Source of the DNA: Balanoglossus misakiensis
Lineage: Eukaryota > Animalia > Hemichordata
DNA: 64,000 nt
Assembly: GCA_040954595.2 (NCBI GenBank)
Contig: CM082586.2
Span: forward strand, 9,145,337-9,209,336
Direction: 5' to 3'
Made by a program: the position numbers and the translations under genes. The notes beneath the pieces were generated by a model, which was not told where the DNA came from, did no database searches, and saw only the letters and a program-made list of their open reading frames with translations. Position 1 is the first letter of the stretch. Each line of letters begins with the position of its first letter. This document shows, in pieces, positions 1 to 30,995 of this stretch.

Positions 1-3000
1 ATAGATAGTGATGCAATCACTTCACTTTGACATGGGTATTAAATGCATATTGGGATTTCAGGTTGTTGAAAAATCTGTGGGTTAATACGTGTCCAAAAGC
101 ACTGTACTTTGACATTGCTAATGCAATGATGACATTGAATCTGATTCTTTGCATCATGGTAAATGGCGTAGCAAGCTTTATGACGCATCAGGGTAGATAG
201 TGATGCAAACACTTCACTTTGACATGGGTATAAAATGCCTACAGGGGGATTTAAAGTTGTCTGTAAATCCCTGGGTTAATACGTGTCCAAAAACACTGTA
301 CTTTGACATTGCTAATGCAGCGATGACATTGAATCTGATTCTTTGCATCAGGGTAAATGGCGAAGCAAGGTTGATTATGCATCAGGGTAGATAGTGATGC
401 AAGCTCTGCACTTTGACATGGGTATAAAATGCCTACAGGGGGATTTAAAGTTGTCTGTAAATCCCTGGGTTAATACGTGGCGGAAAGCACTGTACTTTGA
501 CATTGCATATGCAATGGTGACATTGAATGGGATTCTTTGCATTAGGGCAAATGGCGAAGCAAGCTCAATGATGCATCAGAGTAGATGGTGATGCAAACTC
601 TGCACTTTCACATGGGTATTTAATGTTAAATGAAAATCCATAGGTTAATACGTGGCCAAAAGCACTCTAATTTGACATTGCTAATGCAACGATGACATTG
701 AATCTGATTCTTTGCATCTGGGCAAATGGCGAAGCAAGGTTGATGATGCATCAGGGTAGATAGTGATGCAATCACTTCACTTTGACATGGGTATTAAATG
801 CATATGGGGATTTCAAGTTGATGATAAATCCCTGGGTTAATACGTGTCCAAAAGCACTGTACTTTGACATTGCTAATGTAACGATGACATTGAATCTGAT
901 TCTTTGCATCAGGGTAAATGGCGTAGCAAGCTTTATGATGCATCAGGGTAGATAGTGATGCAAACACTTCACTTTGACATGGGTATTAAATGCATATGGG
1001 GATTTCAGGTTGTTGAAAAATCTGTGGGTTAATACGTGTCGAAAAGCACTGTACTTTGACATTGCTAATGCAATGATGACATTGAATCTGATTCCTTGCA
1101 TCAGGGTAAATGGCGTAGCAAGCTTTATGATGCATCAGGGTAGATAGTGATGCAAACACTTCACTTTGACATGGGTATAAAATGCCTACAGGGGGATTTA
1201 AAGTGGTCTGTAAATCCCTGGGTTAATAAGTGTCCAAAAACACTGTACTTTGACATTGCTAATGCAGCGATGACATTGAATCTGATTCTTTGCATCAGGG
1301 TAAATGGCGAAGCAAGGTTGATTATGCATCAGGGTAGATAGTGATGCAAGCTCTGCACTTTGACATGGGTATAAAATGCCTACAGGGGGATTTAAAGTTG
1401 TCTGTAAATCCCTGGGTTAATATGTGGCGGAAAGCACTGTACTTTGACATTGCATATGCAATGGTGACATTGAATGGGATTCTTTGCATTAGGGCAAATG
1501 GCGAAGCAAGCTCAATGATGCATCAGAGTAGATGGTGATGCAAACTCTGCACTTTCACATGGGTATTTAATGTTAAATGTAAATCCATAGGTTAATACGT
1601 GGCCAAAAGCACTCTAATTTGACATTGCTAATGCAACGATGACATTGAATCTGATTCTTTGCATCTGGGCAAATGGCGAAGCAAGGTTGATGATGCATCA
1701 GGGTAGATAGTGATGCAATCACTTCACTTTGACATGGGTATTAAATGCATATGGGGATTTCAAGTTGATGATAAATCCCTGGGTTAATACGTGTCCAAAA
1801 GCACTGTACTTTGACATTGCTAATGTAACGATGACATTGAATCTGATTCTTTGCATCAGGGTAAATGGCGTAGCAAGCTTTATGATGCATCAGGGTAGAT
1901 AGTGATGCAAACACTTCACTTTGACATGGGTATTAAATGCATATGGGGATTTCAGGTTGTTGAAAAATCTGTGGGTTAATACGTGTCGAAAAGCACTGTA
2001 CTTTGACATTGCTAATGCAATGATGACATTGAATATGATTCTTTGCATCAGGGTAAATGGCGTAGCAAGCTTTATGATGCATCAGGGTAGATAGTGATGC
2101 AAACACTTCACTTTGACATGGGTATAAGTTGCCTACAGGGGGATTTAAAGTTGTCTGTAAATTCCTGGGTTAATACGTGTCCAAAAGCACTGTACTTTGA
2201 CATTGCTAATGCAACGATGACATTGAATCTGATTCTTTGCATCAGGGTAAATGGCGAAGCAAGGTTGATTATGCATCAGGGTAGATAGTGATGCAAGCTC
2301 TGCACTTTGACATGGGTATAAAATGCCTACAGGGGGATTTAAGGTTGTCTGTAAATCCCTGGGTTAATACGTGGCGGAAAGCACTGTACTTTGACATTGC
2401 ATATGCAATGGTGACATTGAATGCGATTCTTTGCATTAGGGCAAATGGCGAAGCAAGCTCAATGATGCATCAGAGTAGATGGTGATGCAAACTCTGCACT
2501 TTCACATGGGTATTTAATGTTAAATGTAAATCCATAGGTTAATACGTGGCCAAAAGCACTCTAATTTGACATCGCTAATGCAACGATGACATTGAATCTG
2601 ATTCTTTGCATCTGGGCAAATGGCGAAGCAAGGTTGATGATGCATCAGGGTAGATAGTGATGCAATCACTTCACTTTGACATTGGTATTAAATGCATATG
2701 GGGATTTCAAGTTGATGATAAATCCCTGGGTTAATACGTGTCCAAAAGCACTGTACTTTGACATTGCTAATGTAACGATGACATTGAATCTGATTCTTCG
2801 CATCAGGGTAAATGGCGTAGCAAGCTTTATGATGCATCAGGGTAGATAGTTATGCAATCACTTCACTTTGACATGGGTATTAAATGCATATGGGGATTTC
2901 AAGTTGATGATAAATCCCTGGGTTAATACGTGTCCAAAAGTACTGTACTTTGACATTGCTAATGTAACGATGACATTGAATCTGATTCTTTGCATCAGGG

Positions 3001-3763
3001 CAAATGGCGAAGCAAGGTTGATGATGCATCAGGGTAGACAGTGATGCAATCACTTCACTTTGACATGGGTATTAAATGCATATGGGGATTTCAAGTTGAT
3101 GATAAATCCCTGGGTTAATACGTGTCCAAAAGCACTGTACTTTGACATTGCTAATGTAACGATGACATTGAATATGATTCTTTGCATCAGGGTAAATGGC
3201 GTAGCAAGCTTTATGATGCATCAGGGTAGATAGTGATGCAAACACTTCACTTTGACATGGGTATTAAATGCATATGGGGATTTCAGGTTGTTGAAAAATC
3301 TGTGGGTTAATACGTGTCGAAAAGCACTGTACTTTGACATTGCTAATGCAATAATGACATTGAATCTGATTCTTTGCATCAGGGTAAATGGCGTAGCAAG
3401 CTTTATGATGCATCAGGGTAGATAGTGATGCAAACACTTCACTTTGACATGGGTATAAAATGCCTACAGGGGGATTTAAAGTTGTCTGTAAATCCCTGGG
3501 TTAATACGTGTCCAAAAGCACTGTACTTTGACATTGCTAATGCAACGATGACATTGAATCTGATTCTTTGCATCAGGGTAAATGGCGAAGCAAGGTTGAT
3601 GATGCATCAGGGTAGATAGTGATGCAAGCTGTGCACTTTGACATGGGTATAAAATGCCTACAGGGGGATTTAAAGTTGTCTGTAAATCCCTGGGTTAATA
3701 CAAGGCGGAAAGCACTGTACTTTGACATTGCATATGCAATGGTGACATTGAATGGAATTCTTT
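1..3763. repeat. Satellite DNA array, ~175-194-bp monomers in a 947-bp 5-mer higher-order repeat (HOR)
   Basis: Monomer starts (GTGATGCAA) at 200, 394, 588, 763, 955 and 1147 give 194+194+175+192+192 = 947 bp. The HOR recurs at 200/1147/2094. The next unit is at 3425, after two extra 192-bp monomers. Confidence 0.97.
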
Positions 3764-3804
3764 CACTACAGCCCAGTGTGCGCCCTCTTTGTCCGATATT
3801 TCCG
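3764..3804 (+). repeat. Left bipartite terminal inverted repeat
   Basis: 11/13 match to the right end over the terminal block, then an unmatched 11-bp spacer, then a shared TTTGTCCGNTATT block. Confidence 0.85.
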
Positions 3805-4799
3805 TCCCTACTTTCATGGCCTCATGAATAATGTATGAGGCGATTTGTTACCGGCAATGGAACGTTCGCCAGATACAACAACATGAAAATGCCGGTAAGT
3901 ATTACAAGACATTAAACGCATTTATAATGTTTACATCACGTTATCATATTCTTTAAGGTCTTAAGCTAGTATTGGCATCATTCTCTGATTTCTATTCATT
4001 TAATTTCACTGAAAATCTGACCTGGTTTCAAATCGCTATCATTGGTAACTATGTAAACAAAGAACATAGCAACCACAACCAAGACAGAAAAACGGCCGAA
4101 AAAAATCAAATCTTAATGCATTATTCAAAATTTCAAAACCATGAGAGTGTTCCTAAGACGTTTGTAACTCAGTGTTTTGATTTTCTATCCCCAAAAAGGT
4201 CATATGTAGAAATTGATCCAAGCAGAAATTCATCGAGTTTGGCGCGTTCTGCCTGCGCGTCTCTCTACCATTGATTACAATGGCACAGCTACGCAAATGT
4301 CGATCGTCAGGCAAAACATATCGGCAGATTTCTCGAGTTTGAAGCGTGAACCTAAAAAAACAAAACGAGCAGATTGTTCCTTGATATCTATATAACATGT
4401 TGATATATCATTTTCGTTCTAAAATGTAAGAGTAAACATTTTGAACGAGAGAGTTCTTGCGACAGCGCTTTGAACGCCGCGCGCGTACAGCGTTTAGGCA
4501 AAGCAGACGCACACAGAAGGAACTGCGTCCACGCGCAATATACGTAGATTGCAGCTGATTATACTCAATCAATGTTCCGGTACTTGCAACAGTATGCCAG
4601 TACTTCGCAAAATACACAGTCTTTTATATCATCAGGTCATCTGTAGAGTCATTAAATACTGTCTGTTTGGAACTGTTTGACTGAAACAGCTTTCTAGATG
4701 ACCTTTTATGTTTTCTACAACTTTTCACATTTATTCACATTTAGGAAATGCTCCATTGTGTAACTCCATCCCAGCTGTGCTCTGGATATAACTCAAATC

Positions 4800-7700
4800 A
4801 TGCCTAACAGGAAAAGGACAAACCATTTTGACATCGGGCAGTATGCAGTCCAACAAAAAAAAGCCAGAGAAATAGCTAGAGACATAACAACTTCAACAGC
4901 TGTTAGATGCTGAGTTAGCTGCAAAGACACTGCCAGAAAAGGTTAAGAGCAAGTCAGAGAATAGATACAAGCTAGGGGCATGGGCAAGAGAGAGAAAGCG
5001 TAGACGTGAGGAAGAGGTAGCTCAGTACAGAGAGAAAATGCAGAAATTAGATGCAAAGAGGAGACTAGTCGACAGGGCCAGTAAGCAACTAAACAGGCTA
5101 GCAAAGAAGCAAAGGAGATTAGCTGGAAATAGGGTTAAGCTTAATCAGGAGGTAAGATAATTATATAGAAGGAATTTAGCTTCATTTCAGATTTTCACAA
5201 GATTTATGATTACAAGCAGAATAGGAAAATATCCACCAAATTAAAGTTTGTATACTTTAAATTCTATTACAATTAAGTGAATCATAAAATATTTTGACCT
5301 TGCTTTAATGTATATGTACCAGAGTCAATAACACTGAAATGAAAATATCTGTTATGTGGAATAGAGATTTTATGTGTGTTTGTTTTCTAAATTCTGAACT
5401 ACAGCTTTGAAACACCTCCCTGTTTGACCTTGGCATGACACTGGGGTTTCCATTTATGCATATTGCTTGCTCATGTGACATTGCCTCTCTGTTTGACCTT
5501 GGCATGACACTGGGATTTCCATTCATGTGTATTGCTTGCTCATGTGACATGGCCTCCTGTTTGACCTTGGCATGACACTGGGGTTTCCATTCATGTGTAT
5601 TGCTTGCTCATGTGACATGGCCTCCCTGTTTGACCTTGGCATGACACTGGGGTTTTCATTCATGTGTATTGCTTGCTCATGTGACATGGCCTCCATGTTT
5701 GACCTTGGCATGACACTGGGGTTTCCATTCATGTGTATTGCTTGCTCATGTGACATGGCCTCCCTGTTTGACCTTGGCATGACACTGGGGTTTCCATTCA
5801 TGTGTATTGCTTGCTCATGTGACATTGCCTACCAGTTTGACCTTGGCATGACAATGAAAATCTGTTTTGTATTCATTTATTAAAGATTGCAGATTTGACA
5901 TCCCCAAAGAAACAGAAGTGGGTTCATAAAAGCAGCCAGGTTTGTGCTAATAACAGTGAATGCCTCACACTGTCCAGAAGTCAGCAACATGAACGCAGAA
6001 GTCAGACTCTTCATGCAGCTACAGTCATACACCAGTCATCATCAGGAACAGATATATCTGCAGGGAGACATGTCAGTGCAAATCCACCAAAATCAGCTCT
6101 TGATGGGCTATGGTATACTTTGATCAACAGTGCCACTCCACGTCAAATGGAAAAGTACCTTCAATCATCAATGAAAATAAATGAATTGGTCATACCAACT
6201 TTGATAAAGAAATCAATATCTGAATTTGAGAAAAGTGAAGGTAATTTGACTAGGAGTGTGCAAGTGTTGTATCAGAATGGGGTTTTGTCAAAACGCAAAT
6301 ACAATGCCTTACGTAATAGTGAGTTGAATCTGTCTAAATTAAAACAACCTAGAAAAGTGTTGCAATTTCACTTTAGGTGTAACATACCAAGGTTACTTTC
6401 CTACAACAAGGTCACTGAATATACACGTGGTTTAGATATAGGAAGTCTTGAACCAATTGTAACAGATGCAAGTAGTGGGTATGAAGCGAAATACAGAGCA
6501 GATGCTCTTGAAAGTTGCTGACATGTATCTTTGCTTGAGTGAGCACCACCCTAACATCCTAAATTGGTTTGGCAAACCGAAGGGCACTTTCCAACTTGCT
6601 GTTGGTGCTGATGGGGCCCCCTTTGGAAAATATGGTCAGGCAACTTCCTGGCTTGTCAGTTTCATCAATGTGGGCCACAGATTAGCAAGCCCTGATGATA
6701 ATTTCTTGTTGCTAGGGGCTAATCTGAAGGAAGATGACCCAGTCCTGATAGATTATGCTAAAAACCTAGCCAAAGAGTTTGAGATCATAGAGGCCAAACA
6801 ATACACTTTACATGGCCTGAGTGTAAAGTTCAATGTATCTTTGCTGCCATTTGATCAAAAGGGATTAGCCTCAGTTTCTGGTGAGTTATCTAATGCTGCT
6901 GAGTATTTCAGTTCCTTTGCTAATGTAACAAAAGGTAGCATAGATGAAATAGGGGCAGATATAGGGCCAGGGAAATTTTGGTCAGAGTGGAGCTATAAGA
7001 AAAGAGTAACAGATGCTAATGCAGTGGCAAAATTCAAAGCAAATTTGACAAAGAAAACAGGTAAGCCTGAAACATCGACAGATCGCTCTAAGGTCACACG
7101 TTTCATTGCCTCCAGAAAATCCCGACAGGAATATATTCCACCCCTGGGTAAGTATATACAGTGTGCCAAGATAGAACCCCTACATCTAAAAAACAATGCC
7201 TGGCAGTATTTCTTTCAAAGGCTTCTTACTGATGCTGTGGCTAAGACTGACCAAAAAGTCATTGACCATGGTGTGAAATTAGAAAAGCTACCACCAAATT
7301 CATGCCTGTACAAATTCCTGCATACACTAAAATATACAGTGAGAGCAGGCAAACTATACAATCAAATTGTCAAATATTTTGCTGAGAATAAGGTTAGTAC
7401 CCATGCCCAATCAGTGAGAGTTCACCGCTTTACAGGGGAAGAATCAAGGAAGTTGGCATGGTCTTTTATGTCACTGATAGAGTGTTTTAGGGAACCCGGT
7501 ATCAGTGCACAGGTGAGAGCGAAATTGTCCCTGTATGGTTACATTGGTGTCCTACTCAGAGATATAACATCTCTCTGTTCCAGGTTTACCCTACATGAGA
7601 GAGATATTGTAGTACTAAGGCAGAAGTGCAAATGGTACTTCAATTTGCATGCGTTATTTCTGACCGTAAACAATACTATTTGGCATATAGGATATGTTGT

Positions 7701-8109
7701 TCCGTGTCATGCATCTCAAATCCACCAGCAGTTCCAAATGGGGCTTGGGCTTAATACAATGGAGGGCAGGGAGGCAAAACATCAGCGCCTTCTGGAATAC
7801 AGCAATAATTCCACCCCTCAAAATAGATGGCCACTGATTTTCAGACATGAGTATGTATTGTTGTACTGGTTACGCATGCGAGACCCCGCTTCAGATAACT
7901 ACAGGGGGGATGGGAGGTCAAATGCCTCCAAAGTAATAAAGTACATCCCAGACAAATGCTTTGATGACCCATCATACTGTTATTGTGGGAATGTAAAGGA
8001 AGAGTTGTCAAATTCCTGTGAAATATGCAGCAGTGAATTTATGTCAGAAATAAAACAGTCTGCAATTAGTGGTAAGATCTCAAAAAAACTAAAAAAAATA
8101 ATGAAATAA
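4800..8109 (+). pseudogene. Transib/RAG1-core-like DDE transposase (spliced, two frameshifts)
   Basis: Exon 4800-5151 is basic/coiled-coil and ends at a GTAAG donor (5152). The acceptor at 5885 is in frame with ORF 5895-6521, which frameshifts into ORF 6466-8109. Motifs: LSKRKYNALR..LLSYNKV, AVGADG (D49 of the 547-aa ORF), PFDQK (D130), EPLH, FTGEESRKL, GLGLNTMEGREAKHQ (E436). The C-terminus has CYCG..CEIC. Confidence 0.8.
5415..5851. repeat. 69-bp minisatellite (~6 copies) in the transposase intron
   Basis: Tandem unit CCTCCCTGTTTGACCTTGGCATGACACTGGGGTTTCCATTCATGTGTATTGCTTGCTCATGTGACATGG. Confidence 0.95.
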
Positions 8110-8534
8110 AATGTGAAAGTTTGAATTTCATGATTCAAAACAATTATTACTGTACATGAAATGTACCAGATAGTTTTAGATTTGTATATAACTGTAAGAG
8201 AATTTGCTGTAAATAATCTTTCATTATGAATGTCACAGATTTTGTGCTGCTTGTATTGTATTGTTCAAAATATGTATATAGCTTTTTAATCATCCTTTGA
8301 AACTAGCTGCTTATATCAGCTCTGTAGATAACCTTGTTTCAAAATAAGTGAATAAATTTTAAACTGAATGATAAATGATTCACCCACAGCTATTCAGTTC
8401 CTATAAAACATGTTTTTCTTTTTTAATTTTGCTTGGACATGCAACGATGCATGAATTCAAATGGACTGACAAAAAGTAATATAGTCAGTTCCAAGAACAT
8501 GAAAAAAAATTTCAACAACAGTCCAAATATGATT

Positions 8535-9155
8535 TCACAAATGCTGAGCAACACCATGTTTGTTCCAGCATCCAAAATGGAAATGTATTGTCACTGTCTC
8601 GGCTGATTTCCTGTATCTGACAATCATAGGTTTATCTTCGGTGCAGATAACTTCCACCCGCTTACCCTTTACTGTCTTCACCAGAAGTTGTTGGTTTTCA
8701 TAGTTGACACCTCTACCCAGCACGTAATTCACTTTGTTGATCCAGGTAAATCGAAAGGTAGCAATACATGGAGTTTCCCGATCATAAATTCCCATTGAAT
8801 TACGGGTAGCGCACTTTCGAAATACATCGAAAACTTCCATAGGAACATTCCTACCAAAACTGCACTTCCATGGGTTGCGCACTGAGGGTGATGGCTTCAT
8901 TCTCTGCATAATTGTTGAGCGCCAGTGACACATCTCCCATTCGAATACAGGATACACCGGAATCTGCTGCATCTTCGCCAGCTCCACCATCGTTGCACTA
9001 CGTTTGCGAACTGTTACATCAACAGCAGCATCGAGATCATCAAAACAATCATGTAGGTTGATGGAACGGTCGATATTTGTCCTCAATAACTGAAATTTGG
9101 CCTCACGCAGCTTACGTTTCACCGTTTTAGAAACATCGATCATGGACGCCGCCAT
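8535..9155 (-). CDS. 206-aa accessory protein of unknown function, convergent with the transposase
   Basis: Uninterrupted ORF with an AAAATGGCG start context, ~105 bp from the right end of the element. It is tail-to-tail with the transposase, and the intergenic gap contains AATAAA motifs. No domain was recognised. Confidence 0.7.
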   Translation of the reverse strand: MAASMIDVSKTVKRKLREAKFQLLRTNIDRSINLHDCFDDLDAAVDVTVRKRSATMVELAKMQQIPVYPVFEWEMCHWRSTIMQRMKPSPSVRNPWKCSFGRNVPMEVFDVFRKCATRNSMGIYDRETPCIATFRFTWINKVNYVLGRGVNYENQQLLVKTVKGKRVEVICTEDKPMIVRYRKSAETVTIHFHFGCWNKHGVAQHL

Positions 9156-9220
9156 TTTGTATATACGTTGCTAGGAACGTGACCCCAGCGTATGACCTCA
9201 ATTAACATATTTGCGCTTCG

Positions 9221-9260
9221 CGGAATAGCGGACAAATGAACACACTTCTGGGCCGCAGTG
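9221..9260 (-). repeat. Right bipartite terminal inverted repeat
   Basis: CGGAATAGCGGACAAATGAACACACTTCTGGGCCGCAGTG, followed by the TTT TSD and resumption of the satellite in register. Confidence 0.85.
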
Positions 9261-12200
9261 TTTGCATTAGGGCAAATGGCGAAGCAAGCTCAATGATGCA
9301 TCAGAGTAGATGGTGATGCAAACTCTGCACTTTCACATGGGTATTTAATGTTAAATGTAAATCCATAGGTTAATACGTGGCCAAAAGCACTCTAATTTGA
9401 CATTGCTAATGCAACGATCACATTAAATCTGATTCTTTGCATCAGGGCAAATGGCGAAGCAAGGTTGATGATGCATCAGGGCAGATAGTGATGCAATCAC
9501 TTCACTTTGACATGGGTATTAAATGAATATGGGGATTTCAAGTTGATGATAAATCCCTGGGTTAATACATGTCCAAAAGCACTGTACTTTGACATTGCTA
9601 ATGTAACGATGACATTGAATCTGATTCTTTGCATCAGGGCAAATGGCGAAGCAAGGTTGATGATGCATCAGGATAGATAGTGATGCAATCACTTCACTTT
9701 GACATGGGTATTAAATGCATATGGGGATTTCAAGTTGATGATAAATCCCTGGGTTAATACGTGTCCAAAAGCACTGTACTTTGACATTGCTAATGTAACG
9801 ATGACATTGAATCTGATTCTTTGCATCAGGGTAAATGGCGTAGCAAGCTTTATGATGCATCAGGGTAGATAGTGATGCAAACACTTCACTTTGACATGGG
9901 TATTAAATGTATATGGGGATTTCAGGTTGTTGAAAATTCTGTGGGTTAATACGTGTCCAAAAGCATTGTACTTTGACATTGCTTATGCAATGATGACATT
10001 GAATCTGATTCTTTGCATCAGGGTAAATGGCGTAGTAAGCTTTATGATGCATCAGGGTAGATAGTGATGCAAGCTCTGCACTTTGACATGGGTATAAAAT
10101 GCCTACAGGGGGATTTAAAGTTGTCTGTAAATCCCTGGGTTAATACGTGGCGGAAAGCACTGTACTTTGACATTGCATATGCAATGGTGACATTGAATGG
10201 GATTCTTTGCATTAGGGCAAATGGCGAAGCAAGCTCAATGATGCATCAGAGTAGATGGTGATGCAAACTCTGCACTTTCACATGGGTATTTAATGTTAAA
10301 TGTAAATCCATAGGTTAATACGTGGCCAAAAGCACTCTAATTTGACATTGCTAATGCAACGATCACATTGAATCTGATTCTTTGCATCAGGGCAAATGGC
10401 GAAGCAAGGTTGATGATGCATCAGGGTAGATAGTGATGCAATCACTTCACTTTGACATGGGTATTAAATGAATATGGGGATTTCAAGTTGATGATAAATC
10501 CCTGGGTTAATACGTGTCCAAAAGCACTGTACTTTGACATTGCTAATGTAACGATGACATTGAATCTGATTCTTTGCATCAGGGTAAATGGCGTAGCAAG
10601 CTTTATGATGCATCAGGGTAGATAGTGATGCAAGCTCTGCACTTTGACATGGGTATAAAATGCCTACAGGGGGATTTAAAATTGTCTGTAAATCCCTGGG
10701 TTAATACGTGGCGGATAGCACTGTACTTTGACATTGCATATGCAATGGTGACATTGAATGGGATTGTTTGCATTAGGGCAAATGGCGAAGCAAGCTCAAT
10801 GATGCATCAGAGTAGATGGTGATGTAAACTCTGCACTTTCACATGGGTATTTAATGTTAAATGTAAATCCATAGGTTAATACGTGGCCAAAAGCACTCTA
10901 ATTTGACATTGCTAATGCAACGATCACATTGAATCTGATTCTTTGCATCAGGGCAAATGGCGAAGCAAGGTTGATGATGCATCAGGGTAGATAGTGATGC
11001 AATCACTTCACTTTGACATGGGTATTAAATGCATATGGGGATTTCAAGTTGATGATAAATCCCTGGGTTAATACGTGTCCAAAAGCACTGTACTTTGACA
11101 TTGCTAATGTAACGATGACATTGAATCTGATTCTTTGCATCAGGGTAAATGGCGTAGCAAGCTTTATGATGCATCAGGGTAGATAGTGATGCAAACACTT
11201 CACTTTGACATGGGTATTAAATGCATATGGGGATTTCAGGTTGTTGAAAAATCAGTGGGTTAATACGTGTCCAAAAGCACTGTACTTTGACATTGCTAAT
11301 GCAATGATGACATTGAATCTGTTTCTTTGCATCAGGGTAAATGGCGTAGCAAGCTTTATGATGCATCAGGGTAGATAGTGATGCAAACACTTCACTTTGA
11401 CATGGGTATAAAATGCCTACAGGGGGATTTAAAGTTGTCTGTAAATCCCTGGGTTAATACGTGTCCAAAAGCACTGTACTTTGACATTGCTAATGCAACG
11501 ATGACATTGAATTTGATTCTTTGCATCAGGGTAAATGGTGAAGCAAGGTTGATGATGCATCAGGGTAGATAGTGATGCAAGCTCTGCACTTTGACATGGG
11601 TATAAAATGCCTACAGGGGGATTTAAAGTTGTCTGTAAATCCCTGTGTTAATACGTGGCGGAAAGCACTGTACTTTGACATTGCATATGCAATGGTGACA
11701 TTGAATGGGATTCTTTGCATTAGGGCAAATGGCGAAGCAAGCTCAATGATGCATCAGAGTAGATAGTGATGCAAACTCTGCACTTTCACATGGGTATTTA
11801 ACGTTAAATGTAAATCCATAGGTTAATACGTGGCCAAAAGCACTCTAATTTGACATTGCTAATGCAACGATGACATTGAATCTGATTCTTTGCATCAGGG
11901 CAAATGGCGAAGCAAGGTTGATGATGCATCAGGGTAGATAGTGATGCAATCACTTCACTTTGACATGGGTATTAAATGCATATGGGGATTTCAAGTTGAT
12001 GATAAATCCCTGGGTTAATACGTGTCCAAAAGCACTGTACTTTGACATTGCTAATGTAACGATGACATTGAATCTGATTCTTTGCATCAGGGTAAATGGC
12101 GTAGCAAGCTTTATGATGCATCAGGGTAGATAGTGATGAAAACACTTCACTTTGACATGGGTATTAAATGCATATGGGGATTTCAAGTTGATGATAAATC

Positions 12201-12794
12201 CCTGGGTTAATACATGTCCAAAAGCACTGTACTTTGACATTGCTAATGCAACGATGACATTGAATCTGATTCTTTGCATCAGGGTAAATGGCGAAGCAAG
12301 GTTGATGATGCATCAGGGTAGATAGTGATGCAAGCTCTCCACTTGAACTTGGGTATAAAATGCCTACAGGGGGATTTAAAGTTGTCTGTAAATCCCCAGT
12401 TTAATACGTGGCGGAAAGCACTGTACTTTGACATTGCTAATGCAATGGTGACATTGAATGTGATTCTTTGCATTAGGGCAAATGGCGAAGCAAGCTCAAT
12501 GATGCATCAGAGTAGATGGTGATGCAAACACTTCACTTTGACATGGGTATTAAATGCATATGGGGATTTCAAGTTGTTGAAAATTCCGTAGGTTAATACG
12601 TGTCCAAAAGCACTGTACTTTGACATTGCTAATGCAATGGTGCCATTGAATGTGATTCTTTGCATTAGGGCAAATGGCGAAGCAAGCTTTATGATGCATC
12701 AGAGTAGATGGTGATGCAAGCTCTGCACTTTGACATAGGTTTTCAATGCATATGCATGAGTATTTAAAGTTGACTGTAAATCCCTGGGTTAATA
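9261..12794. repeat. Satellite array continued (irregular HOR: 561-, 947- and 753-bp steps)
   Basis: Same monomer types; the diagnostic monomer starts at 10064, 10625, 11572 and 12325. Confidence 0.97.
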
Positions 12795-15560
12795 CAGTCC
12801 CAACAGCGTACAACAACTAAACTGTACGGGAAAGTTCCCGCACTAGTTGTAGCAGTGTTGTAGCAGAGATGTTACGGCAACACCTCTTTTGTTGGTTAAT
12901 TGATGTTTTTTGTCTTAGTTTACGGCAACTACAAAGGTTCCCGTAGTTTGAAACAAAAGAATGTGTGCTCCATTACGGCAATTTGGGGCAGGTGTTACAG
13001 CAAGAAGGGCTAATGGGGAGGTGATTATCACCCTGATGTGAACAATAGTTGTAGCAATGTCTATGTGTGATAATGAGCTCCACCCATGTGGATTTTGCTT
13101 GGTTGGGGGCAATTTATGTCCTGGCCTCACTAAGCAAATAAATTCCTTCTAAATCTTGATAGCGAGCAAGTCAGTTGTCAACCTTACTAATATTTCCCCT
13201 GTCTCAGTAGCTTTACATACGCTATGCAGGGCTAGCTGACGGGCTTCAAAGTTTTGTGTTGTGACCTATGCAGAAAGCAAGCGGTTCTAAAAATAAACTT
13301 CCATAACAACATGTACACTTGGCGTAAGTTGGCAGGGTATTGACTAATATGTTGCAATTGTTTGTATCAATGTACATTTTGAGACAACTAGGGCAAGGCC
13401 AACAACCTGATCAGGATATTCAAATTAGGTAAAGACGCACTCAAAACAGCAATTATACAGCAATTATAATTACAGGACGTGTGCCATGCTGGTGACCAAA
13501 TAGACGCAGACGGACCTCCCTGGCATTAGTGATACCCTGAGTAATAAAACACCTGTTGTTTTTATTACCTTGTCAATATGTGTAAATTTGGCAACAATGT
13601 GTTGCAAACCTGATGCTATCAAGCAGAGACATGGCCCAGTGAAAGTCCAAATACATGTAATTCAGAGTGAACCATGGTGCGATGTGTATTTTGAGTTTGT
13701 CTGTTTTTTGCACTAGAATTCTGCAGATTTGTGAATAAAGTTGCAGTTCCATTTTGTGCGCATGTGTTGAGTTTGGCAGGAGGCCGTAATTGAAATGACT
13801 GTCTTCTAAGTTTTGGTGTGGGAAACACCTCTGACACCACTATGCATATCAGAGTGCCTGAAACTTTTGGACCCATGTGCTTTTTATTTACATGATGAAA
13901 TCGGCCACATGTTGACCTTGTAATTTATTCAAATTATTTGTCACGTCAAAAGCTGTTAGACACGGCAGCAGGACGTCTAGCCGCTCATCTTTTTACCAGG
14001 TCGATCGATCGATACTACCAGCACTACCACACATGTTGACCTCGTAATTTATGCAAAGTATTATTCACATCAAAAGCCGTTTGACACAGGTGGAGGACGT
14101 CTAGGCCCGGTCTTGCCGGCCACTCATCTTTTACCACCATGATTTGACCACTTGGCAAGTGCTCTGAAATAATAGGACTAGTTTCATGTTGTGAATGTAC
14201 GTTCGCAGTAATAAGTTTCTCATGAATATTCACGCACCCGAGAGCTTGACAAAGAAGCATTTGGACTAAACCACTATACCACTGTATTTTGTTGAAAGTT
14301 CAGCGATCAATACTGTCATGCATGCCCGCTCGTAGTAATCACTTTGTTGTCAACTTTTTTATTTCAGGAATGTTGATTAAACAATACATTGAACTGGCTG
14401 GATTTGAACAGAAAATGTTAAAATTTTACATGTGAATTTGAAACTTACCATCAATTCATTCACTGCGGCCACCCCCTCTCTGTCTGGATATAAAGGTCGC
14501 TCATTGAATGTATTTTATCAGGCGCGGACTTTGGGGGCAAGAGGTAGCCAGACAATGATTGACAGGCAAATTGTATCCAAATTCTGCCAAGTGCAGGGGC
14601 TTGCTTAGACTAAACAAATTGCGTGAATATATAATGAGTAAACATGTAGGTCATTCATCCCAAACCGGCCAACTAATTGCTGCCAGTCACTTCCCATCAT
14701 GTTCAAGCACTGCCCGTCGGAAAATGAGTGTATATCCATTGCCGTAATAATAGAATATTGAAATAATACAGACCATTACTACTTATGAAACCCTTCAAAA
14801 TTATAGTCAAGACTCTCAAAACTTGTCTGTTCTAAAGATCAAACTGCAGCGGGGGGGGGGGGGGGGGGGGGGGGCAGCAGGTCAAAAAAAATGAAAGCCA
14901 ATGTCTTTTAAGCTAAACCCAATTGTGAAATGCGTCATTGTGTTTGATTTTCCATTGGTCATGCTGTATCTCTCAAATATTAATTGGTCCAGCTCCTTGA
15001 AAGAAAAGAAACCCCAGCAAAACATGTGCATTCTACAACACTGGGGTAGGGATGTGTTGACCTCTGTTCATGTCCACAGACTGTTCTGTTACCAAGAGAG
15101 TTCAGACTTTGTCGATGAACATAACATCATTCCAAAACTGACTTCATTGGTATTTGATGTCAGCCCTTTGCCATTTTATTCTCAGACAGAGCTTCTTTTG
15201 TAAACTTTGTGATACAATGTTGCAGTGACCTGTTGCAAAAATGTTGCACTCTAGTTCTAGACCTGTCAATCACTCTAGTTGTAGCAAAATAATCAACACC
15301 TTAAACAAAAGGCATCACTCTGTGGGGGCTAATTGACAGGTGTTGCAGCAGTATTTATGGGTAGAGGTGTTAAGCTTCCCTTGTTAATGGCTTGCTGTAA
15401 AGGAGTTGCCGTAGTTTTTACGGAAATGTAACAAAAGGAAATGGGCCTTAGACAATTGTTGCAGCAAACTCTGCTACAACTAACAATAGTTCCGTAGGGT
15501 TGACGTACTACTTGCCGTATTCAGAAATGTACAAATAGTTGTTCTATTCTGTTGGGACTG
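12795..15560. mobile_element. 2.77-kb non-autonomous DNA transposon, TA TSD, CAGT...ACTG termini
   Basis: Perfect 12-bp TIR CAGTCCCAACAG, extending imperfectly to ~30 bp. The site reads GGTTAATA[element]TACATGGCC versus the empty monomer GGTTAATACGTGGCC. Subterminal GTTGTAGCA/TGCTACAAC repeats are present; there is no credible ORF. Confidence 0.88.
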
Positions 15561-16869
15561 TACATGGCCAAAAGCACTGTAATTGCTAATGCAACAGTGA
15601 TTTTAATTCTGATCTTTTGCATCAGGGTAAAAGGCGAAGCAAGCTTGATGATGCATCTGGGAAGATGGTGTTTCAAGCCCTTCACTTTGACATTGGTATA
15701 AAATGCCTACAGGGGGATTTAAAGTTGTCTGTAAATCCCTGGGTTAATACGTGTCCAAAAGCACTGTACTTTAACATTGCTAATGCAACGATGACATTGA
15801 ATCTGATTCTTTGCATCAGGGTAAATGGCGAAGCAAGGTTGATGATGCATCAGGGTAAATAGTGATGCAAGCTCTGCACTTTGACATGGGTATAAAATGC
15901 CTACAGGGGGATTTAAAGTTGTCTGTAAATCCCTAGGTTAATACGTGGCGGAAAGCACTGTACTTTGACATTGCATATGCAATGGTGACATTGAATGGGA
16001 TTCTTTGCATTAGGGCAAATGGCGAAGCAAGCTCAATGATGCATCAGAGTAGATGGTGATGCAAACTCTGCACTTTCACATGGGTATTTAATGTTAAATG
16101 TAAATCCATAGGTTAATACGTGGCCAAAAGCACTCTAATTTGACATTGCTAATGCAACGATGACATTGAATCTGATTATTTGCATCAGGGCAAATGGCGA
16201 AGCAAGGTTGATGATGCATCAGGGTAGATAGTGATGCAATCACTTCACTTTGACATGGGTATTAAATGCATATGGGGATTTCAAGTTGATGATAAATCCC
16301 TGGGTTAATACGTGTCCAAAAGCACTGTACTTTGACATTGCTAATGTAACGATGACATTGAATCTGATTCTTTGCATCTGGGTAAATGGCGTAGCAAGCT
16401 TTATGATGCATCAGGGTAGATAGTGATGCAAACACTTCACTTTGACATGGGTATTAAATGCATATGGGGATTTCAAGTTGATGATAAATCCCTGGGTTAA
16501 TACGTGTCCAAAAGCACTGTACTTTGACATTGCTAATGCAACGATGACATTGAATCTGATTCTTTGCATCAGGGTAAATGGCGAAGCAAGGTTGATGATG
16601 CATCAGGGTAGATAGTGATGCAAGCTCTGCACTTGAACTTGGGTATAAAACGCCTACAGGGGGATTTAAAGGTGACTGTAAATCCCCAGTTTAATACGTG
16701 GCGGAAAGCACTGTACTTTGACATTGCTAATGCAATGGTGACATTGAATGTAATTCTTTGCGTTAGGGCAAATGGCGAAGCAAGCTCAATGATGCATCAG
16801 AGTAGATGGTGATGCAAACTCTTCACTTTGACATGGGTATTAAATGTATATGGGGATTTCAAGTTGTTG
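15561..16869. repeat. Final block of the satellite array
   Basis: Same monomers; the array ends abruptly mid-monomer at ~16869. Confidence 0.96.
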
Positions 16870-16882
16870 CCCTACTGCTTAC

Positions 16883-19800
16883 CTATTGCAGCATTTAATC
16901 TTTTTGCCTCATTTTGACCAGAATCCCCAGGTGCTCTGTGTAGTCGTATCATGCGGTCAGTTCCATGAATTCGTATAAGTTCAGCATCTCTATATCTCAC
17001 TTCCACATTGCTGACACCAACACCTGGTCTTGCATCAGTCGTCTTGAGAATATTGCCATACATAGGTGCTTGAACAAAAGAGAGCTTCTGTATGATAATA
17101 TCACATATGTCAATCAAGCCAGTCAAACCAACAAAAAGGGCATCTTTGTTAATGGTCCTGAAATGTAAAAGATAACAAATAAGATAAGCATTCAAAAGTG
17201 ACTAAAAGCGATAGTTCCATTTTTCCAAAAGGGGAAATCTGACAGTAATGTTTTGCTGTGATATTCAACATCAGGGTTCGATAACAGAGCCAATGACTGA
17301 ACTCATTAAATAATTTTACAAATGCACCTTATTTCTCCCAGCAGTAACTCTGCATTTTGGATAACCTGTTTCACTGGCTCTAGCAAATCTGATGAACTCT
17401 CCTCCTGTCTTCTTTTCAGATATTCATCCAATCTTGTCCATGCCTGCTCCAAATGATGATGCAACCAAGCCAGCCTGTCACCTTCATATTTGCGAAATAC
17501 ACATTTTTGATCAGTTGTCACACATTCAACATCTTCTTGTACAGTTGTATCTATAAACAAAAGTAGTTATAAAGCATGAATTGAACTGCATAACTAAAGG
17601 ATGGATAATCACCAACAGGATTGTCCTCTTTAGCTGACAAAGGGGACTATGGTACAATAAGATGCATTAATTAAAGGGACATTAGATGTAACTTTGGCTA
17701 TTTTTTTCAGTATTTTGGATCTGTGTATATCAGCTTTACGTTTCTCTAGATCATGCTGAAATGCCTAGTATTCTCACTCTCAACATAACCTGTATATGTG
17801 AAATGACACTGTTATTGTTGACAAATGAATTCTAGTCTGGATTAGAAAACAATTTACAACAATAACAATGGTAATTATATTCATATAGGTTGTGTTGAGA
17901 ATCTATACACTGGGTATTTGATCATGATTCAGGGATCCAGCGTAGTTGAAAGACACAACAAAAATACTGAAAAAAACTTTTGTTTTGACTTGTCCTGCCT
18001 ACTTGTTTCAAAAACTATTTATTTTTGCAAAAAAACAAGACTTAGGGTATTTAATAATAATTGCTTCAGTGGCAGAGCAAACCTATCTTTAAAGTGGAAG
18101 ACTGTATCATGGACTTGTGCATAGAAAATCTTCAAAGCCTGGTTATTTGAAGAATGTCCTTGTTGCTTCTCAAAAAGCTCAGGCTCTTCTCTCCTACAAA
18201 CCAAAATGTATGGAAGTAGCTCCACACTTAGTATTTGTAAGGCAGGATATGTATCTGTTCAACAACTATACAAAACTCAAAATTTAATCATACTTTGGTA
18301 TTGTTAGAATGTTACCTTAACATCAAGTAGTCAGAGGCCCAGACACTTCCACTGCTCCCAATGAAATGTTTAGGTCGAATCACCACTACAGTTTGATCCT
18401 TTTAATTGACAAGTTCTTTATTTCCTTATAAGGGAATAAGAAAATTAGGAGATAATGTAAAAAGGTCTCATAAAGACAGGTTGATTCTGATTGGTCAATT
18501 CCTATATTAAATTACTCATTTCCCAAGTGTACAAGAAGTACATATGTGAACAATGTTTTGGATTTTTATATTTGGCAATTTAGATATCTGTACTAAGTAT
18601 ATTCAGCAAACTAGTGCATTAATCACACTTACCTTCAACAGTTACAGTTTTGGCAGAGATGAAGCGGAATGAGGTCGGAGTGACATGTACTTCAGGCGTA
18701 CTAAAATCATGTTGAGGGAGTTTGTTCTGTTTTTCCGGGTTTGTAACATCATAGATTACACCTTTCTTAACATCTCTTGCTCCAACTATTAAACCAAAAC
18801 AGAAGACAAAAACTGATTACATTTCATGTCACACAGCTTCATGCTTTCCAATGATATATAGCTCATATGGGTTTTTCACTATTTGAAAGAAGAGACTGTT
18901 TGGAAAGGGACTGTTTCTTGTCCTGGGCCCTTAATCCATGAATCAACAAAATTTTACTCACCATCAGTTCCTGGTCTTAGGTAAGCTTTATCATCCATAC
19001 TGATCATAAGGCTGTTTGACCATTCCGAATCGCTAAACATATTAAATTTAGCATTCTTCACATGTGCCCTCTGATGATGAGTGGACTCCGTTGAATGTAG
19101 CTCAGTCTTTGGTGGCTTTCTGGCACAAAACAAGGACTTCCCCATGTGTGCTTTTGCCTGTATGGATCGTACATTTCGAGGACGGCCTCTATTAAGAACT
19201 GTTGTTGCTGATTTGATTAATTTCTTTCCCCTTTGGAGCAGCATGTAATTCGCTAGGGACAGAAAATGTCTCTTCTTAACACGGTGGTGAGAGTAAAGTG
19301 TAATATTATGTCTTCGCCCATGTGCTGTACTTTTTTCTTCAACAGCTTTTGCGATGAAAAGTTCATCCTCTGTATCTAGAAGGCGAGGTGCACCTCCTCC
19401 AAGCTTTCTACGCTTTACCCGATTTTCTTCCAGCAATGTTTGAGCGATCCGCTTCTTAGATTGCAGGGCTCGTCTCCTACTACTTTTATCTTCTGGAGTT
19501 AACAATAATGCTAATTCCCGCTTTCGTTTTTCTAAGCAATCTCTCTCTGCACATAGATCACTTCTTCTTTTATCAGACAAACTACAACTGTCTAGTCTGG
19601 CATCAACATCTTCTATTTGCTGTACTATTTTGTTAATCTTTTCCTTCACCCTACGAACAAGGACATCTTGGGCTGCTTCAGTGGCATTTTTGAATTCTTC
19701 TGCAGAAACTAACACTTTGGAAAGAAACTGTACAGCTCTGTTTGGTTTTACTCCAAGCATATGCATGTCATTTCTTGAGTTTGATGCAAAAAGAACAGCT

Positions 19801-20384
19801 TTCACAACAGATTTATCATACTCTGTGTCCATGGTTGCAATGATATCATGCAGGGATTCGATTGTCAAAGGAAATCTTGCAGTATCTTTGCGATCTGTAG
19901 CATGTTCTAGTTCTACGAACAAATCAGTAAAGCTAACAAAACTGTTATTGAGTATGATATATCTACACCCTGCCAGTGTGACAACTGTTACATTGAGTAC
20001 GTGGTCAGGATGTAGCAGTTGGTCACGGAATTCATGTTCAGTTGGCTGAGTTTCAAAAAATCCGCAATACAGTCCATAGACATCTTTGAAGCGTAAATAC
20101 CCTTTCACCTTTCCATCAAAATCACTTCTCACCATCAATTGGTGTACAACATACAGCAGGCCTTGGACGATTTTCTGTTTCTCGGGCGCTTTTCTGTGCA
20201 CGTCCAAGAGTGCCTCGAGCTTCCCCTCACATTGTTCCGGTTTACACGTTTGTTGTGATACACGTTCGTACCCGCCACCAACCTTGGACTGCTTCCGCGA
20301 GGCACTTCTCCTCTCCGAAAATGTCAACTTGACGCGATCTTTCTCGCTTTCTTTAGAAGACGGACCGAGAGCGACATCAGCCAT
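16883..20384 (-). pseudogene. Zator-like DDE transposase, multi-exon, 3'-truncated
   Basis: ATG at 20384. Exon 1 ends ISMDDKAYLRPGTD|GT; the next exon (from 18785) has KLPQHDF; the last visible exon has TTDARPG and RAPGDSGQNEAKRLN. These parallel Zator motifs DDKA, LPDHDF, DGGPD and APGxSxxNxVERR. The internal exons contain stops. Confidence 0.72.
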
Positions 20385-20625
20385 TTTGATTTTGAACAGT
20401 AAAAAGGTCACGTGTGTATTTATCGCGGGAATTTATCGCGCGCTTGGTACATTCACACCAAAGGTGGCATTTTTGCATTAAAATCAGTATTATGCGATTT
20501 TTTATCACTGAAATGTAATTTAATTTTCGTTTTGTGAAATATTTTTTTTTAAATCTTGAGCTTTCGGAAAAGAGGTGAACTTCCCATCATAACATTCTAC
20601 ACACGTGTACCTCCATAGTGTCATC

Positions 20626-22525
20626 ATGGCAGTGGAAGAGCAGCCAACATCTGATGAGAGCAACATTGCTGATTTCTTGCAAATGTGTGACCTGCACAAT
20701 TACACGCAATATTTTTTAGACGCCGGTGTTCAAAAAGCAAAGCATCTAGTTGATGTTGATGACGACGACCTTAAAGATATTGGTAAGTGTGGAATCTCAT
20801 CTCATCTCAGCTCTGTCTGCGGCTGCGGAGTCAGTCGCTGCCTGTAATCAGACAGGCAGTGTGTGTGTTTTCATGCATCGCCCTGCAACTTTGACCGGAA
20901 CTTTAATTTTGACACCTACCGTAACGTCTACGATAGCTTTTAGCGTTTAAAACTCAGATGAAATTGTAGCTGGGGTTTAATATAAACAATATTTCTACCC
21001 AGTTTGAAAAATGTTATATACCTCTTAGATCTAGAATATCTGCCGATTAAAAAAATGCATCTATTCTTAGTTGTACATTATTTTTTATGGAAAAAAGTGC
21101 TCTGAATCACAGGTGCAATAGCTAGTGGCAATGTGTAGAGATGACCATTTCTTTCAAATTTATATCCCTGAAAATTGCATCAACAGATATTAGAAATAAA
21201 TGCAGGCTGCTTTTATACTTTTATACTCGTTTGATAGACAACAATTAAGAATTAAATTTGGCTTTTCTGTAATAATGCATAAATCAAATATCATATATCA
21301 TGTATTGGGATATTGACTGATGTTTTGCCTTGTGCATAAAATACCCATGTAAACTTGTATGTAGTCATTTAGCCTTTTATCCGTATTTTTATTGATTTCA
21401 GGACTGTCTATTGAAATAAAGCGACTCAATAGGTTCAAAAGGAGCATTCTGAAACACCCAATTCCCAGCAAGGAGTCATTTCTCCAACCCAGCCAATCCA
21501 AGTCAGGTGCAGGTGAGAGCAGCAAGCAGAAACCGTGGATGCAACCTAAATATGGTTATATTCCTAATGGTAAAACAAAGCGGGCAGTCTTCATGAACCG
21601 GGTCTTACCAGACTTTTACTCAGCAAATTTTAAGTGGAGCAAAAACACAAGAGACTTCTGCAAGAAGTTTCATGAAGAGGGACGGCGTCAATACGAGTTG
21701 GAAATGAAATTTGAGCGCTTCCAAAATGACGTGGAGAAAGTGACAAGCACTAACAACCCAGCAGCTTTTGGTGTCGTTCTTGCTTCTGAGATTTTAAAAC
21801 CTCATCACAGCAGCATTATAGAACAGAATGAACATAAAGTTGGAGAAATCAAAACATCTCTTCAACAAGAGAAAGATAAACTTCTTTCTGATACCCAGCA
21901 ATGCTATACAAAAAATGGAAAAATAAAATCTGGCCACGAGTGTGCCGTCCATTTCAACACCAAATGTTTAACTTTAATTGAAGAGTTGAATAAGCAAATT
22001 GAAGAGTTAGAAATAAAGTTGTAGGACAGGAAGCAGAAAGTACATGAAATGTTTTCTTTTCATTACATGAAGCACACAAGTATTAAACGTAAAAAGAAAC
22101 CAAATAGGAGGCTAGCTAAGAAACGTAGAGAAAACAGAGATAATGCTGGCAAAAGAAGAGTAGCTAGTATTATTGCCCCATCATGTGACATACATAATTC
22201 TGTCGTCACAGATGACAAAATTCATTTTGAAGGTGTCGGAAGACTATATCTAAGAGATGTGAAATACATAAAATTACTGAAAAGAGAAAGCAAAATCACA
22301 AATGGTGCATTTGATTTAATCGCAGATTGCTTGTCCCACAAAGACTGGGCCATAAACTTTCACAGTGACAATGACTACAACAGCTGTGATGCTGATGATG
22401 ATAATGATGACAACGATGATGATGATGATGATGATGATGAGGGGAGGGTGGATGAGGAAAAGGAAGAGGAGGGGAGTGGTGACCATCAAGGGTACTTTAA
22501 TAGCGGTGACAGCATACTAGTATAA
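20626..22525 (+). pseudogene. SAM-domain protein with coiled coil, basic patch and acidic tail (one in-frame TAG)
   Basis: Exon 20626-20782 (IADFLQMCDLHNYTQYFLDAGV..HLVDVDDDDLKDIG) splices GT-AG to 21402 (LSIEIKRLNRFK), completing a SAM-like pattern. The TAG at 22022-22024 is in frame with ORF 22049-22525. Confidence 0.68.
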
Positions 22526-23199: not shown

Positions 23200-24400
23200 T
23201 GAACACTTGAACAGGCAACCCCTAAATATGAAACTCAGTTCACTCAACATTTAACACTTAGAGTCACTGTCCGAATCTATAACATAAATCCGTTTTCTTA
23301 TTGGCTTATATTGCGATGCGTTGTCGCCCATGTTTGATCTCAGTGGCTGGTTGATATTTATACTGAAGTGAATGTACCGCCCGTTATCGTTTGACCAGGG
23401 CCAAACAGTGAACTTGAATGAACATTACGGGTGTCATCTGATGACTGTGCAGTTGTTGTGTCCGTTTGCGGGTTAGGCCTAGTTGACGATGGGGCCGATT
23501 TCATGTTGCTCATGATGGAGGACATTTTTAGCTGTTGTTTCTGTGACACTGTGGCGTAGTGAGTGATGCTGTTGACGTTCTTGTGTGCTGTCCGTTGCAT
23601 GATATGAGTCGAGGGTACATCCACGTTGTTCAGTTCTGTAACTAGGGTCGTCCGAGCTGAATGGTTCGTTTTCTTACTGCTAAGATTCGCCGCTTGTGCC
23701 ATAGTTTTCATCAGGCCTCTGAGGGAGTTGATGCCCAGTCGCTGATTCTTGTACCAGTTGTTCTCGTCAGATGCATTGTATTTGTGATTTACGGCGAGGT
23801 AAACTGGACTAACGGCAGCCATCATTGACATTGGACGCATTTCGGTAAACTTCTTAAAAGCTGCAACCGGACACAGTTCTGGGTTTGATTTATTTTCGTA
23901 CATTCTGGGCTTTATTTTTCTCGTGTTTCGTGGGTTTTCTCCTTGTCTTGTTATTGTCTGTCTCTCGATGTTGTATTCGATATATTTCACGATATCGCCA
24001 TCGATGACTTCGGTGCCCTCGACAATATCACCCAGTTCCATGGTGTAGGCCGAACTGGGTTGTTAGAAACCACCACACGGTATTCTGAAGTGCTGCTGGG
24101 CGATGCATACCAAGCTGTCCAGTATTGTAAAGTGCATCGACGTCGTCGGCAGTTAGTGGCTCGGTTTTATTGGGTGCGTTGCCCTAGCCCATAGCTTTTA
24201 GGTTCTTCTTTTAGCAGCGAAGACTCGTCTAGCGCCCTCGAAAAGAGCATCCGTTTTAATATTCCACTGATATTTATTTTCACGTAATAGTCGGTCGATT
24301 GAATTCAGGAAACTGTGCATTGTCGCTGGCTCATATTCAGTAGCCCGGAGACCAGGGCGTCGATCTAAAATACAACAGTCGAGCAATGTCATGCTGAGCT
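23200..24400 (-). pseudogene. Crypton-type tyrosine recombinase relic (DUF3504-like)
   Basis: Motifs YEPATMHSFLNSIDRLL, ERQTITRQG, ELCPVAAFKKF, WYKNQRLGINSL, KTNHSAR (H-x-x-R) and RTAHKNVNSITHY (H...Y), spread across frameshifted ORFs. Confidence 0.85.
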
Positions 24401-30688: not shown

Positions 30689-30995
30689 ACACGGGTTTCA
30701 TAAGTCTAGCGCCCTCTTGTGGCTATCATGAATTTGACCTCAAAGCGAGGCCACTGGGTGTACGCCCCTGATGAGTTGATGACAGCTCGTAAACACAGGC
30801 TCAGCGGTTTGTTGACGGAAGTGGCGACGCCGATAAAACTTTTCAAGGTAAGAATTTCTCGAATTCGTAGCTGTATTTTTGTTTTCAGTCATATTTTAAG
30901 CACCTTCTTGTTTAGCTTCTGAGATATTATAGCAAAAAAAGTGTGAATTTCTTTCAATTTTTGCGATCTCAAAATTTTTTTTTGGAGCGACCGAA
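30689..30995 (+). repeat. Left TIR of the ISL2EU element (weaker match continues to ~31060)
   Basis: Reverse complement of 35493-35788, with a few substitutions and one ~10-bp indel. Confidence 0.95.

Follow-up and report, generated by a model that had tools for sequence, protein, structure and literature searches.

In elements of the RAGL group, which includes ProtoRAG, a RAG1-like transposase (RAG1L) with four ZnC2/ZnH2 zinc ligands and a CCGHC tail is combined with a retained RAG2L gene and a target-site duplication (TSD) of 5 bp (PMC10629977, PMC7204232). The tail, CX2CX3GHX4C, clamps the inner block of the terminal inverted repeat (TIR; PMC10629977), the four zinc ligands are highly conserved in RAG1L (Martin 2020, PMC7204232), and RAG1L proteins are ~25-35% identical to RAG1 (PMC1131882). 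In canonical Transibs the transposase core is all that is encoded (PMC4411706); some Transibs make 3-bp TSDs, and TSD length is labile in Transib (bioRxiv 10.64898/2026.08.26.747230). Chapaev elements are recognized by CAC..GTG ends and a 3-bp TSD, which is TWA in Chapaev3, and by an LH motif (PMC4079192); an N-terminal Chapa zinc finger defines both Chapaev and Chapaev3 (PMC4411706). CAC..GTG ends with a 3-bp TSD have also been used to classify families as EnSpm, and two zinc motifs, C(2)C and H(3-4)H, are reported as common to all EnSpm/Chapaev/Mirage/Transib/RAG1 (CMCT) enzymes, a group whose lineages, including Mirage, Plavaka, ESTA and Lanisha, have CA..TG ends and TSDs of 2-5 bp (PMC12730594). 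Here we describe a transposon in a 64,000-nucleotide stretch of the Balanoglossus misakiensis genome (GCA_040954595.2, contig CM082586.2, 9,145,337 to 9,209,336; hereafter the window), for which a preliminary description made from the sequence had proposed a distinct lineage with a Transib/RAG1-core-like transposase. Our analysis indicates that it is probably a frameshifted, recent copy of a two-gene transposon with a RAG1/Transib-type predicted fold, no C(2)C motif, a 3-bp TSD and a co-inherited, basic protein of 206 amino acids (aa) that is likely an accessory subunit.

A complete element in a satellite array

The element spans 3764..9260 (5497 bp), has CAC...GTG ends and interrupts an array of a 192-bp satellite (2-3753 and 9355-12795). 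Its 5' end reads CACTACAGCCCAG from 3764, and its 3' end, up to 9260, reads CACTGCGGCCCAG as the reverse complement. The TIRs are bipartite: the outer 13 bases agree at 11 of 13 positions and are separated by a non-matching spacer of 11 nt, equal in length at both ends of this copy (11/11), from an inner matching block, TTTGTCCG.TATT. Of the 39 other monomers that the same search pattern picks out, nearly all carry ...GATTC-TTT-GCAT (two deviate within TTT), and the occupied monomer reads ...AATTC-TTT-[element]-TTT-GCAT. Moreover, contigs from two sequencing runs of one sample, possibly the source of the window, contain the empty junction, in which 5500 bases are skipped and 3 bases fit either side. 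Since empty monomers hold a single TTT and the run contigs give the empty junction, the TSD is exactly 3 bp (TTT). The ends, length and duplication first reported for this element are therefore confirmed, and the TIRs together with a duplication against an empty site identify a cut-and-paste DDE transposon. Loose read ends led to satellite flanks only and revealed no further insertion sites. The features of the element are as follows.

3761..3763, no strand: left TSD copy, TTT (empty satellite monomers have one TTT)
3764..3804, + strand: left TIR, bipartite, with a 13-bp terminal block, an 11-nt spacer and the TTTGTCCG.TATT block (end comparison)
4800..5151, + strand: predicted exon 1 of the transposase, with a basic helical N-terminus and one extra base at 4886 (translation; its start resembles the N-termini of relatives P0099, P0026 and P0022 by eye)
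5152..5885, + strand: predicted intron with a GT donor at 5152 (sequence alone; in-frame acceptor candidates end at 5885, 5915, 5939 or 5984)
5886..6469, + strand: transposase pre-core region, with LSKRKY and LLSYNKV and five bases missing after 6469 (homology to P0001)
6463..8109, + strand: transposase core, 548 aa, RNase H-type DDE (D50, E90, D131, H241, E437) with a RAG1-like predicted fold (alignment, model)
8535..9155, - strand: partner gene, 206 aa, basic, with an N-terminal helical hairpin, an alpha/beta domain and a conserved C-terminal GxWNxxGxPQH (HMMER relatives, model)
9221..9260, - strand: right TIR (end comparison)
9261..9263, no strand: right TSD copy, TTT (empty satellite monomers have one TTT)

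The two genes, with a core open reading frame (ORF) at 6463-8109 on the + strand and an ORF at 9155-8535 on the - strand, lie tail-to-tail as originally proposed. In the pre-core frame, identity to P0001, a Ptychodera flava protein, is 68% over 128 aa, and the predicted intron contains a 69-bp minisatellite (5415-5853). Both frameshifts noticed earlier are real: the majority form in each run of the sample has neither the additional base at 4886 nor the five-base loss after 6469, and correcting each restores the frame arithmetically. This majority form is ~0.5% divergent from the window copy (12 of 2240 letters, one contig), and seven of nine classified coding differences are synonymous (the nine being taken from 40 of 65 rows). 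The window copy is young, recently inserted and broken by frameshifts, in a family that has intact members. At 4089-4315 the read depth in one run is ~10x that of most of the element, which suggests that a more abundant repeat shares this stretch of the 5' region.

A metagenome scan gave 264 transposase-bearing stretches, of which 80 were kept. The ends of these relatives follow CACG(C/G)YKRG, a pattern that was derived from the scanned loci and then applied to them. Both ends could be placed in 14 elements (13 loci and the window), and seven of these carry a 3-bp TSD (TTA, ATT, GAT, TAG, AGC, ATA, TTT); TTA is the one doubtful TSD in the family list. None of the 14 has a TSD of 4, 5 or 6 bp, and a 3-bp match is expected by chance at a rate of 0.049 per pair. 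A further locus, L075, adds the TSD AAT. Chance resemblance of TIRs and TSD was rejected on the empty sites and on the binomial probability (p 2e-6 for 7/14). In four loci (L014, L016, L017 and L022) two left termini stand in tandem ~845 bp apart, the inner one with a constant flank across samples.

A transposase family with a RAG1-like predicted fold and no C(2)C motif

A protein search with the transposase returned 338 relatives, 120 of which are listed. Among these listed matches, the top one is a P. flava protein at 62% identity, the others are 36-45% identical, and the named sources are the cnidarians Actinostola, Acropora, Dendronephthya, Actinia, Porites and Nematostella in addition to the acorn worm P. 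flava. The family is common in corals, and its listed relatives carry no Pfam domain; Pfam scans of four window ORF pieces and 43 homologues gave nothing informative, and EnSpm Pfam families matched neither the window ORF nor any of 28 homologues. No relatives were found in viral contigs, and prokaryote genomes gave a single match, L081, an 86-kb contig of an Anaerolineae metagenome-assembled genome that holds a complete family member (3848-12389) with an ATA TSD. This contig is probably mis-binned host DNA, since its flanks are ~55% GC, lack ORFs of 150 aa and contain more CACGCCTGGG-type ends. An internal inverted repeat of L081 (about 4584 and 12074) overlaps its partner gene. Domestication as a host gene was rejected, given the fresh TSD and the many divergent intact elements.

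We aligned the window ORF with 106 of the 120 listed relatives and counted residues from 6463. Four residues, D50, D131, H241 and E437, do not vary across these 107 sequences, and E90 is kept in 99%, with core spacings of 81 (D-D), 110 (D-H) and 196 (H-E), compared with 110, 83 and 169 for D701/D811/H894/E1063 of BbeRAG1L (PMC7204232). The catalytic residues picked out in the preliminary description are therefore the invariant ones, and only their numbering as D49/D130/E436 has to be shifted by one; the motifs that it quoted (LSKRKY..LLSYNKV, GADG, FDQK, EPLH and TGEESRKL) are all present.

An AlphaFold model of the core (pLDDT 92.8, pTM 0.93) was compared with solved structures. In the PDB, Foldseek placed RAG1 first (E 3.5e-11, TM 0.56), followed by BbRAG1L (E 1.6e-5) and HzTransib (E 3e-5 to 4e-4), with the next match at 0.14. 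VIA, an independent aligner, matched RAG1 over 403 residues (Z 21.4, root-mean-square deviation 3.5 A), ahead of BbRAG1L (Z 19.5), HzTransib (14.2), P element (11.6), ISCth4 (7.1) and Hermes (6.1). The nearest entries in the ESM Atlas are unnamed cnidarian clusters (0.97), followed by clusters with PF26100 RAG1_RNase_H (16% of members), DUF1280 and RAG1. The order and the helix/strand context of the DDE residues in the model agree with RAG1/Transib. Together, these comparisons predict a core fold like that of RAG1 and HzTransib, with RAG1 as the best match among solved structures, and bear out at the level of models the first assignment to a Transib/RAG1-like core.

The most distinctive trait of the element, which had been overlooked before, is that the C(2)C zinc motif has been lost. 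CxxC occurs between D131 and H241 in none of the 107 sequences, and anywhere from D131 to E437 in three. The stretch that we take, from the order of RAG1 motifs, to be the place of the zinc CxxC reads YFSSF; F152 is 99% conserved and W407 is invariant. Before the last E, 57 of 107 sequences have an H(3-4)H pattern; the window copy does not, its position 411 (H in 48%) being Y. H416 is 98% conserved. A C-terminal CxC..CxxC (C506, C508, C519, C522) is present in 96 of 107. Of the N-termini, 67 are at least 150 aa long and none of these contains CxxC; they are mostly prokaryote-style gene calls, in which upstream exons are possibly missed, and the predicted exon 1 frame of the window has no Cys cluster. 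Because the N-termini contain no CxxC, a Chapa zinc finger was not seen.

The partner gene

The partner protein is strongly basic (pI, isoelectric point, 9.7 in the window). A word-based search for its relatives found zero, and full HMMER gave 105 matches, a few long ones of which are spurious. The window protein and 69 relatives were aligned, the pI being at least 9 in 54 of these 70, and modeled (pLDDT 94) as a helical hairpin followed by an alpha/beta domain. The model contains no propeller and no kelch Pfam match was found, so the earlier statement that the partner is not kelch-like holds. Homology of the partner to RAG2 was rejected. The best Foldseek match in the PDB has E 0.03, the best VIA match (Z 7.2) involves the N-terminal helices alone, viral structures give at best E 7e-4 at TM 0.21, and the Atlas gave no usable match. 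The modeled partner appears to have no clear fold match, in comparisons of the whole protein that do not establish a new fold. The protein family itself has a recent Pfam entry, PF26709, which is precomputed on 38 of 41 partner profile matches.

Among the scanned loci, the partner sits downstream of the transposase, on the other strand, in 37 of the 44 that extend at least 1 kb beyond it, in 33 of the 35 that extend at least 1.5 kb and in 17 of the 17 that extend 2.5 kb, and no strong match was found in any other orientation. It keeps a fixed position beside the right TIR. As the scanned loci are partly redundant, they were collapsed at 90% transposase identity to 15 pairs including the window. 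Partner and transposase distances are correlated over these pairs (Mantel test, Spearman rho 0.70, p 0.0002), the co-divergence spans 34-82% transposase identity, and the same main clades appear in both trees. The fixed convergent position, the correlated distances and the matching clades show that the gene pair is old and co-inherited. The tabulation of other copies that the preliminary description had called for thus gives 3-bp TSDs in half of the two-ended elements and a partner in all but two of the 35 loci. In five loci (L034-L036 and L075-L076), short fragments like the partner C-terminus lie upstream of the transposase (E 2e-6 to 5e-4).

Placement among known lineages and neighboring repeats

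The element shares with RAGL/ProtoRAG (BbeRAG1L-RAG2L, PDB 6B40) and vertebrate RAG1 a predicted core fold (Z 19.5-21.4, ~400 residues), the DDE residues plus an active-site His and Glu, and a Cys-rich C-terminal tail; as in ProtoRAG, two convergent genes lie between bipartite TIRs that start with CAC. With Transib (HzTransib, PDB 6PQN/6PQX) it shares the CAC ends and, at Z 14.2, the fold. True membership or sister status in the RAGL/Transib clade, with RAG2L and the zinc site lost and an unrelated gene substituted at the same position, would account for this layout and for predicted structural matches that rank RAG1 and BbRAG1L ahead of HzTransib, and Transib is itself reported to include TSDs of 3 bp (bioRxiv 10.64898/2026.08.26.747230). 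We nevertheless regard it as improbable. RAGL elements retain RAG2L, a 5-bp TSD, a CCGHC tail and all four ZnC2/ZnH2 ligands, and none of these matches what is seen here: the window element has a 3-bp TSD, no ZnC2 cysteines, a CxC..CxxC tail instead of CX2CX3GHX4C, and an alpha/beta partner instead of a kelch propeller. It also differs from RAGL/RAG1 in lacking N-terminal zinc fingers or a RING, in its equal TIR spacers and in its 10-13% identity; the window protein has no sequence match to RAG1, whereas RAG1L proteins are recognizably similar to it (PMC1131882). From a canonical Transib (one gene, 5-bp TSD, C(2)C/H(3-4)H) it is set apart by its second gene and the lack of C(2)C. Finally, convergent pairs also occur in unrelated superfamilies, including an element at 30687-35790 in the window. 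The ProtoRAG-like arrangement first proposed thus recurs across the family but is not specific to ProtoRAG, and the supposedly non-canonical TSD, supported family-wide as 3 bp, is unusual only relative to RAG, since such TSDs are ordinary in EnSpm and Chapaev and reported in some Transibs; on its own it is not remarkable.

A divergent member of a named EnSpm/CACTA or Chapaev3 lineage, probably present in Repbase and with a TnpA-like helper as its second gene, would have CAC..GTG ends with a 3-bp TSD, which is both a criterion for EnSpm (PMC12730594) and a hallmark of Chapaev (PMC4079192). These features would let a curator file the element as EnSpm. It further shares with Chapaev3/Chapaev the LH motif and animal hosts, and with EnSpm/CACTA and other CMCT lineages CA..TG ends and a TSD within 2-5 bp, and its left end begins with CACTA. 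Plant CACTA elements make two protein products, to which the two genes here can be likened. Nematostella and Acropora, in which the family is abundant, have genomes that Repbase curators have mined. Even so, we consider this assignment unlikely. C(2)C, said to be common to all CMCT enzymes (PMC12730594), is absent from the 107 aligned sequences, no Chapa zinc finger was seen in the 67 N-termini, and the window ORF and 28 homologues gave no EnSpm-type Pfam match; TTT, ATT, GAT, TAG, AGC and ATA do not fit the TWA of Chapaev3, the relatives end in CACGC/GYGGG rather than CACTA, the second gene is conserved, and the Atlas neighbors are RAG1-type. We found no paper describing the family (Repbase Reports and subscription journals lay outside the search), and the accessible parts of PMC1131882, bioRxiv 10.1101/2021.09.26.461848 and PMC9435367 do not describe it; that it already bears a Repbase name is rather doubtful. 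Turning to the second gene, it could instead be a stable passenger, anti-silencing or regulatory, that acts outside the transposition complex. Anti-silencing cargo is carried by many transposons, for example as TET genes, which move between superfamilies (PMC12730594), and the partner, whose modeled fold resembles no known transposase subunit, is absent in two loci. Unlike TET cargo, it co-diverges with its own transposase at a fixed place next to the right TIR, and it is strongly basic in most relatives. We hold a passenger to be the less probable case, and give slightly under even weight to the partner having a RAG2-like accessory role, without RAG2 homology.

Several points weigh against a two-gene RAG1-fold transposon with an accessory partner. 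PDB sequence searches with the ORF and with a profile did not reach RAG1, so that relatedness to RAG1 would rest on a predicted fold at 10-13% identity with no sequence-level link. To our knowledge, transposases of EnSpm, Chapaev and Mirage have no structure in the PDB, and 'closest to RAG1' ranks solved structures alone. H(3-4)H, half of the zinc motif, partly persists, with 57 of 107 sequences matching it, and a substitute metal site might be formed by other conserved C/H residues (C88, H416, H440, H462). Seven of the 14 two-ended elements lack a 3-bp TSD, misses that are likely due to collapsed short-read contigs, and the TSD of L015 is open to doubt, given a left flank that recurs across samples; excluding L015 and the window leaves 5/13 (p 3e-4). 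Two of 35 loci with enough downstream DNA have no partner, and the function assigned to the partner is putative.

By the hallmarks given above, the element is not RAGL, not Chapaev3 and not a canonical Transib, and it works like a RAG1/Transib-type cut-and-paste element. Within the CMCT/RAG1-fold group, whose canonical lineages carry the C(2)C that it lacks, it likely forms a branch of its own that apparently has no name, and the misfit to RAGL and Chapaev3 supports the distinct lineage proposed at the outset. For such a transposon, we infer that the transposase recognizes the bipartite CAC-ends and that its C-terminal CxC..CxxC possibly clamps the inner block of the TIR in the manner of the BbeRAG1L CCGHC tail. 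Excision would proceed by RAG-like nick-and-hairpin chemistry, as equivalents of the active-site His and Glu appear to be kept, and the ends would be joined with a 3-bp stagger. The partner may bind DNA or the transposase and thereby help to assemble or aim the complex.

The window contains several other repeats. The satellite (2-3753, 9355-12795 and 15582-16866) shows a five-monomer higher-order pattern of 194, 194, 175, 192 and 192, and a second insertion within it (12793-15562) has 27-nt inverted repeats beginning TACAGTCCCAAC. At 18954-22525, a 492-aa - strand ORF ending SMDDKAYLRPGTD and divergent + strand ORFs (21365-22525) are possibly another DDE transposon; the two ORFs scanned there (18954-20432 and 21365-22024) gave zero Pfam matches. 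A fragment with DUF3504 and phage-integrase matches (23358-24062) is presumably Crypton-like. Rearranged remains of a long terminal repeat retrotransposon (42344-48749; RVT_1 at 44969-45934) have nested inverted arms, and a 1.9-kb insert (46353-48254) has perfect 30-nt inverted repeats. The element at 30687-35790, which we take to resemble ISL2EU, looks intact; its inverted repeats are 264 nt long, and its two ORFs are convergent.

31288-32952, + strand: ORF with THAP, HTH_Tnp_4 and DDE_Tnp_4 (Pfam)
34910-33114, - strand: YqaJ-like nuclease ORF (Pfam)

In its boldest form, which we think quite unlikely, the transposon would belong to an unrecognized, widespread animal lineage nearest RAG1L, in which the enzyme was rebuilt without ZnC2/ZnH2 zinc and a new-fold protein was independently recruited as an obligate RAG2-equivalent subunit. 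If true, nature would have run for a second time, in elements that are still mobile, the experiment of converting a Transib-type transposase into a recombinase of two subunits. Quite apart from this reading, a large, intact and recently mobile family without the zinc motif shows the range of change possible on the RAG1 scaffold and offers a natural contrast for what determines a 3-bp rather than a 5-bp target stagger. Its fixed partner allows a direct test of whether RAG1-type enzymes have repeatedly gained accessory subunits, which bears on the acquisition of RAG2, and hundreds of 'uncharacterized' coral, anemone and acorn-worm proteins could be reannotated as transposon products.

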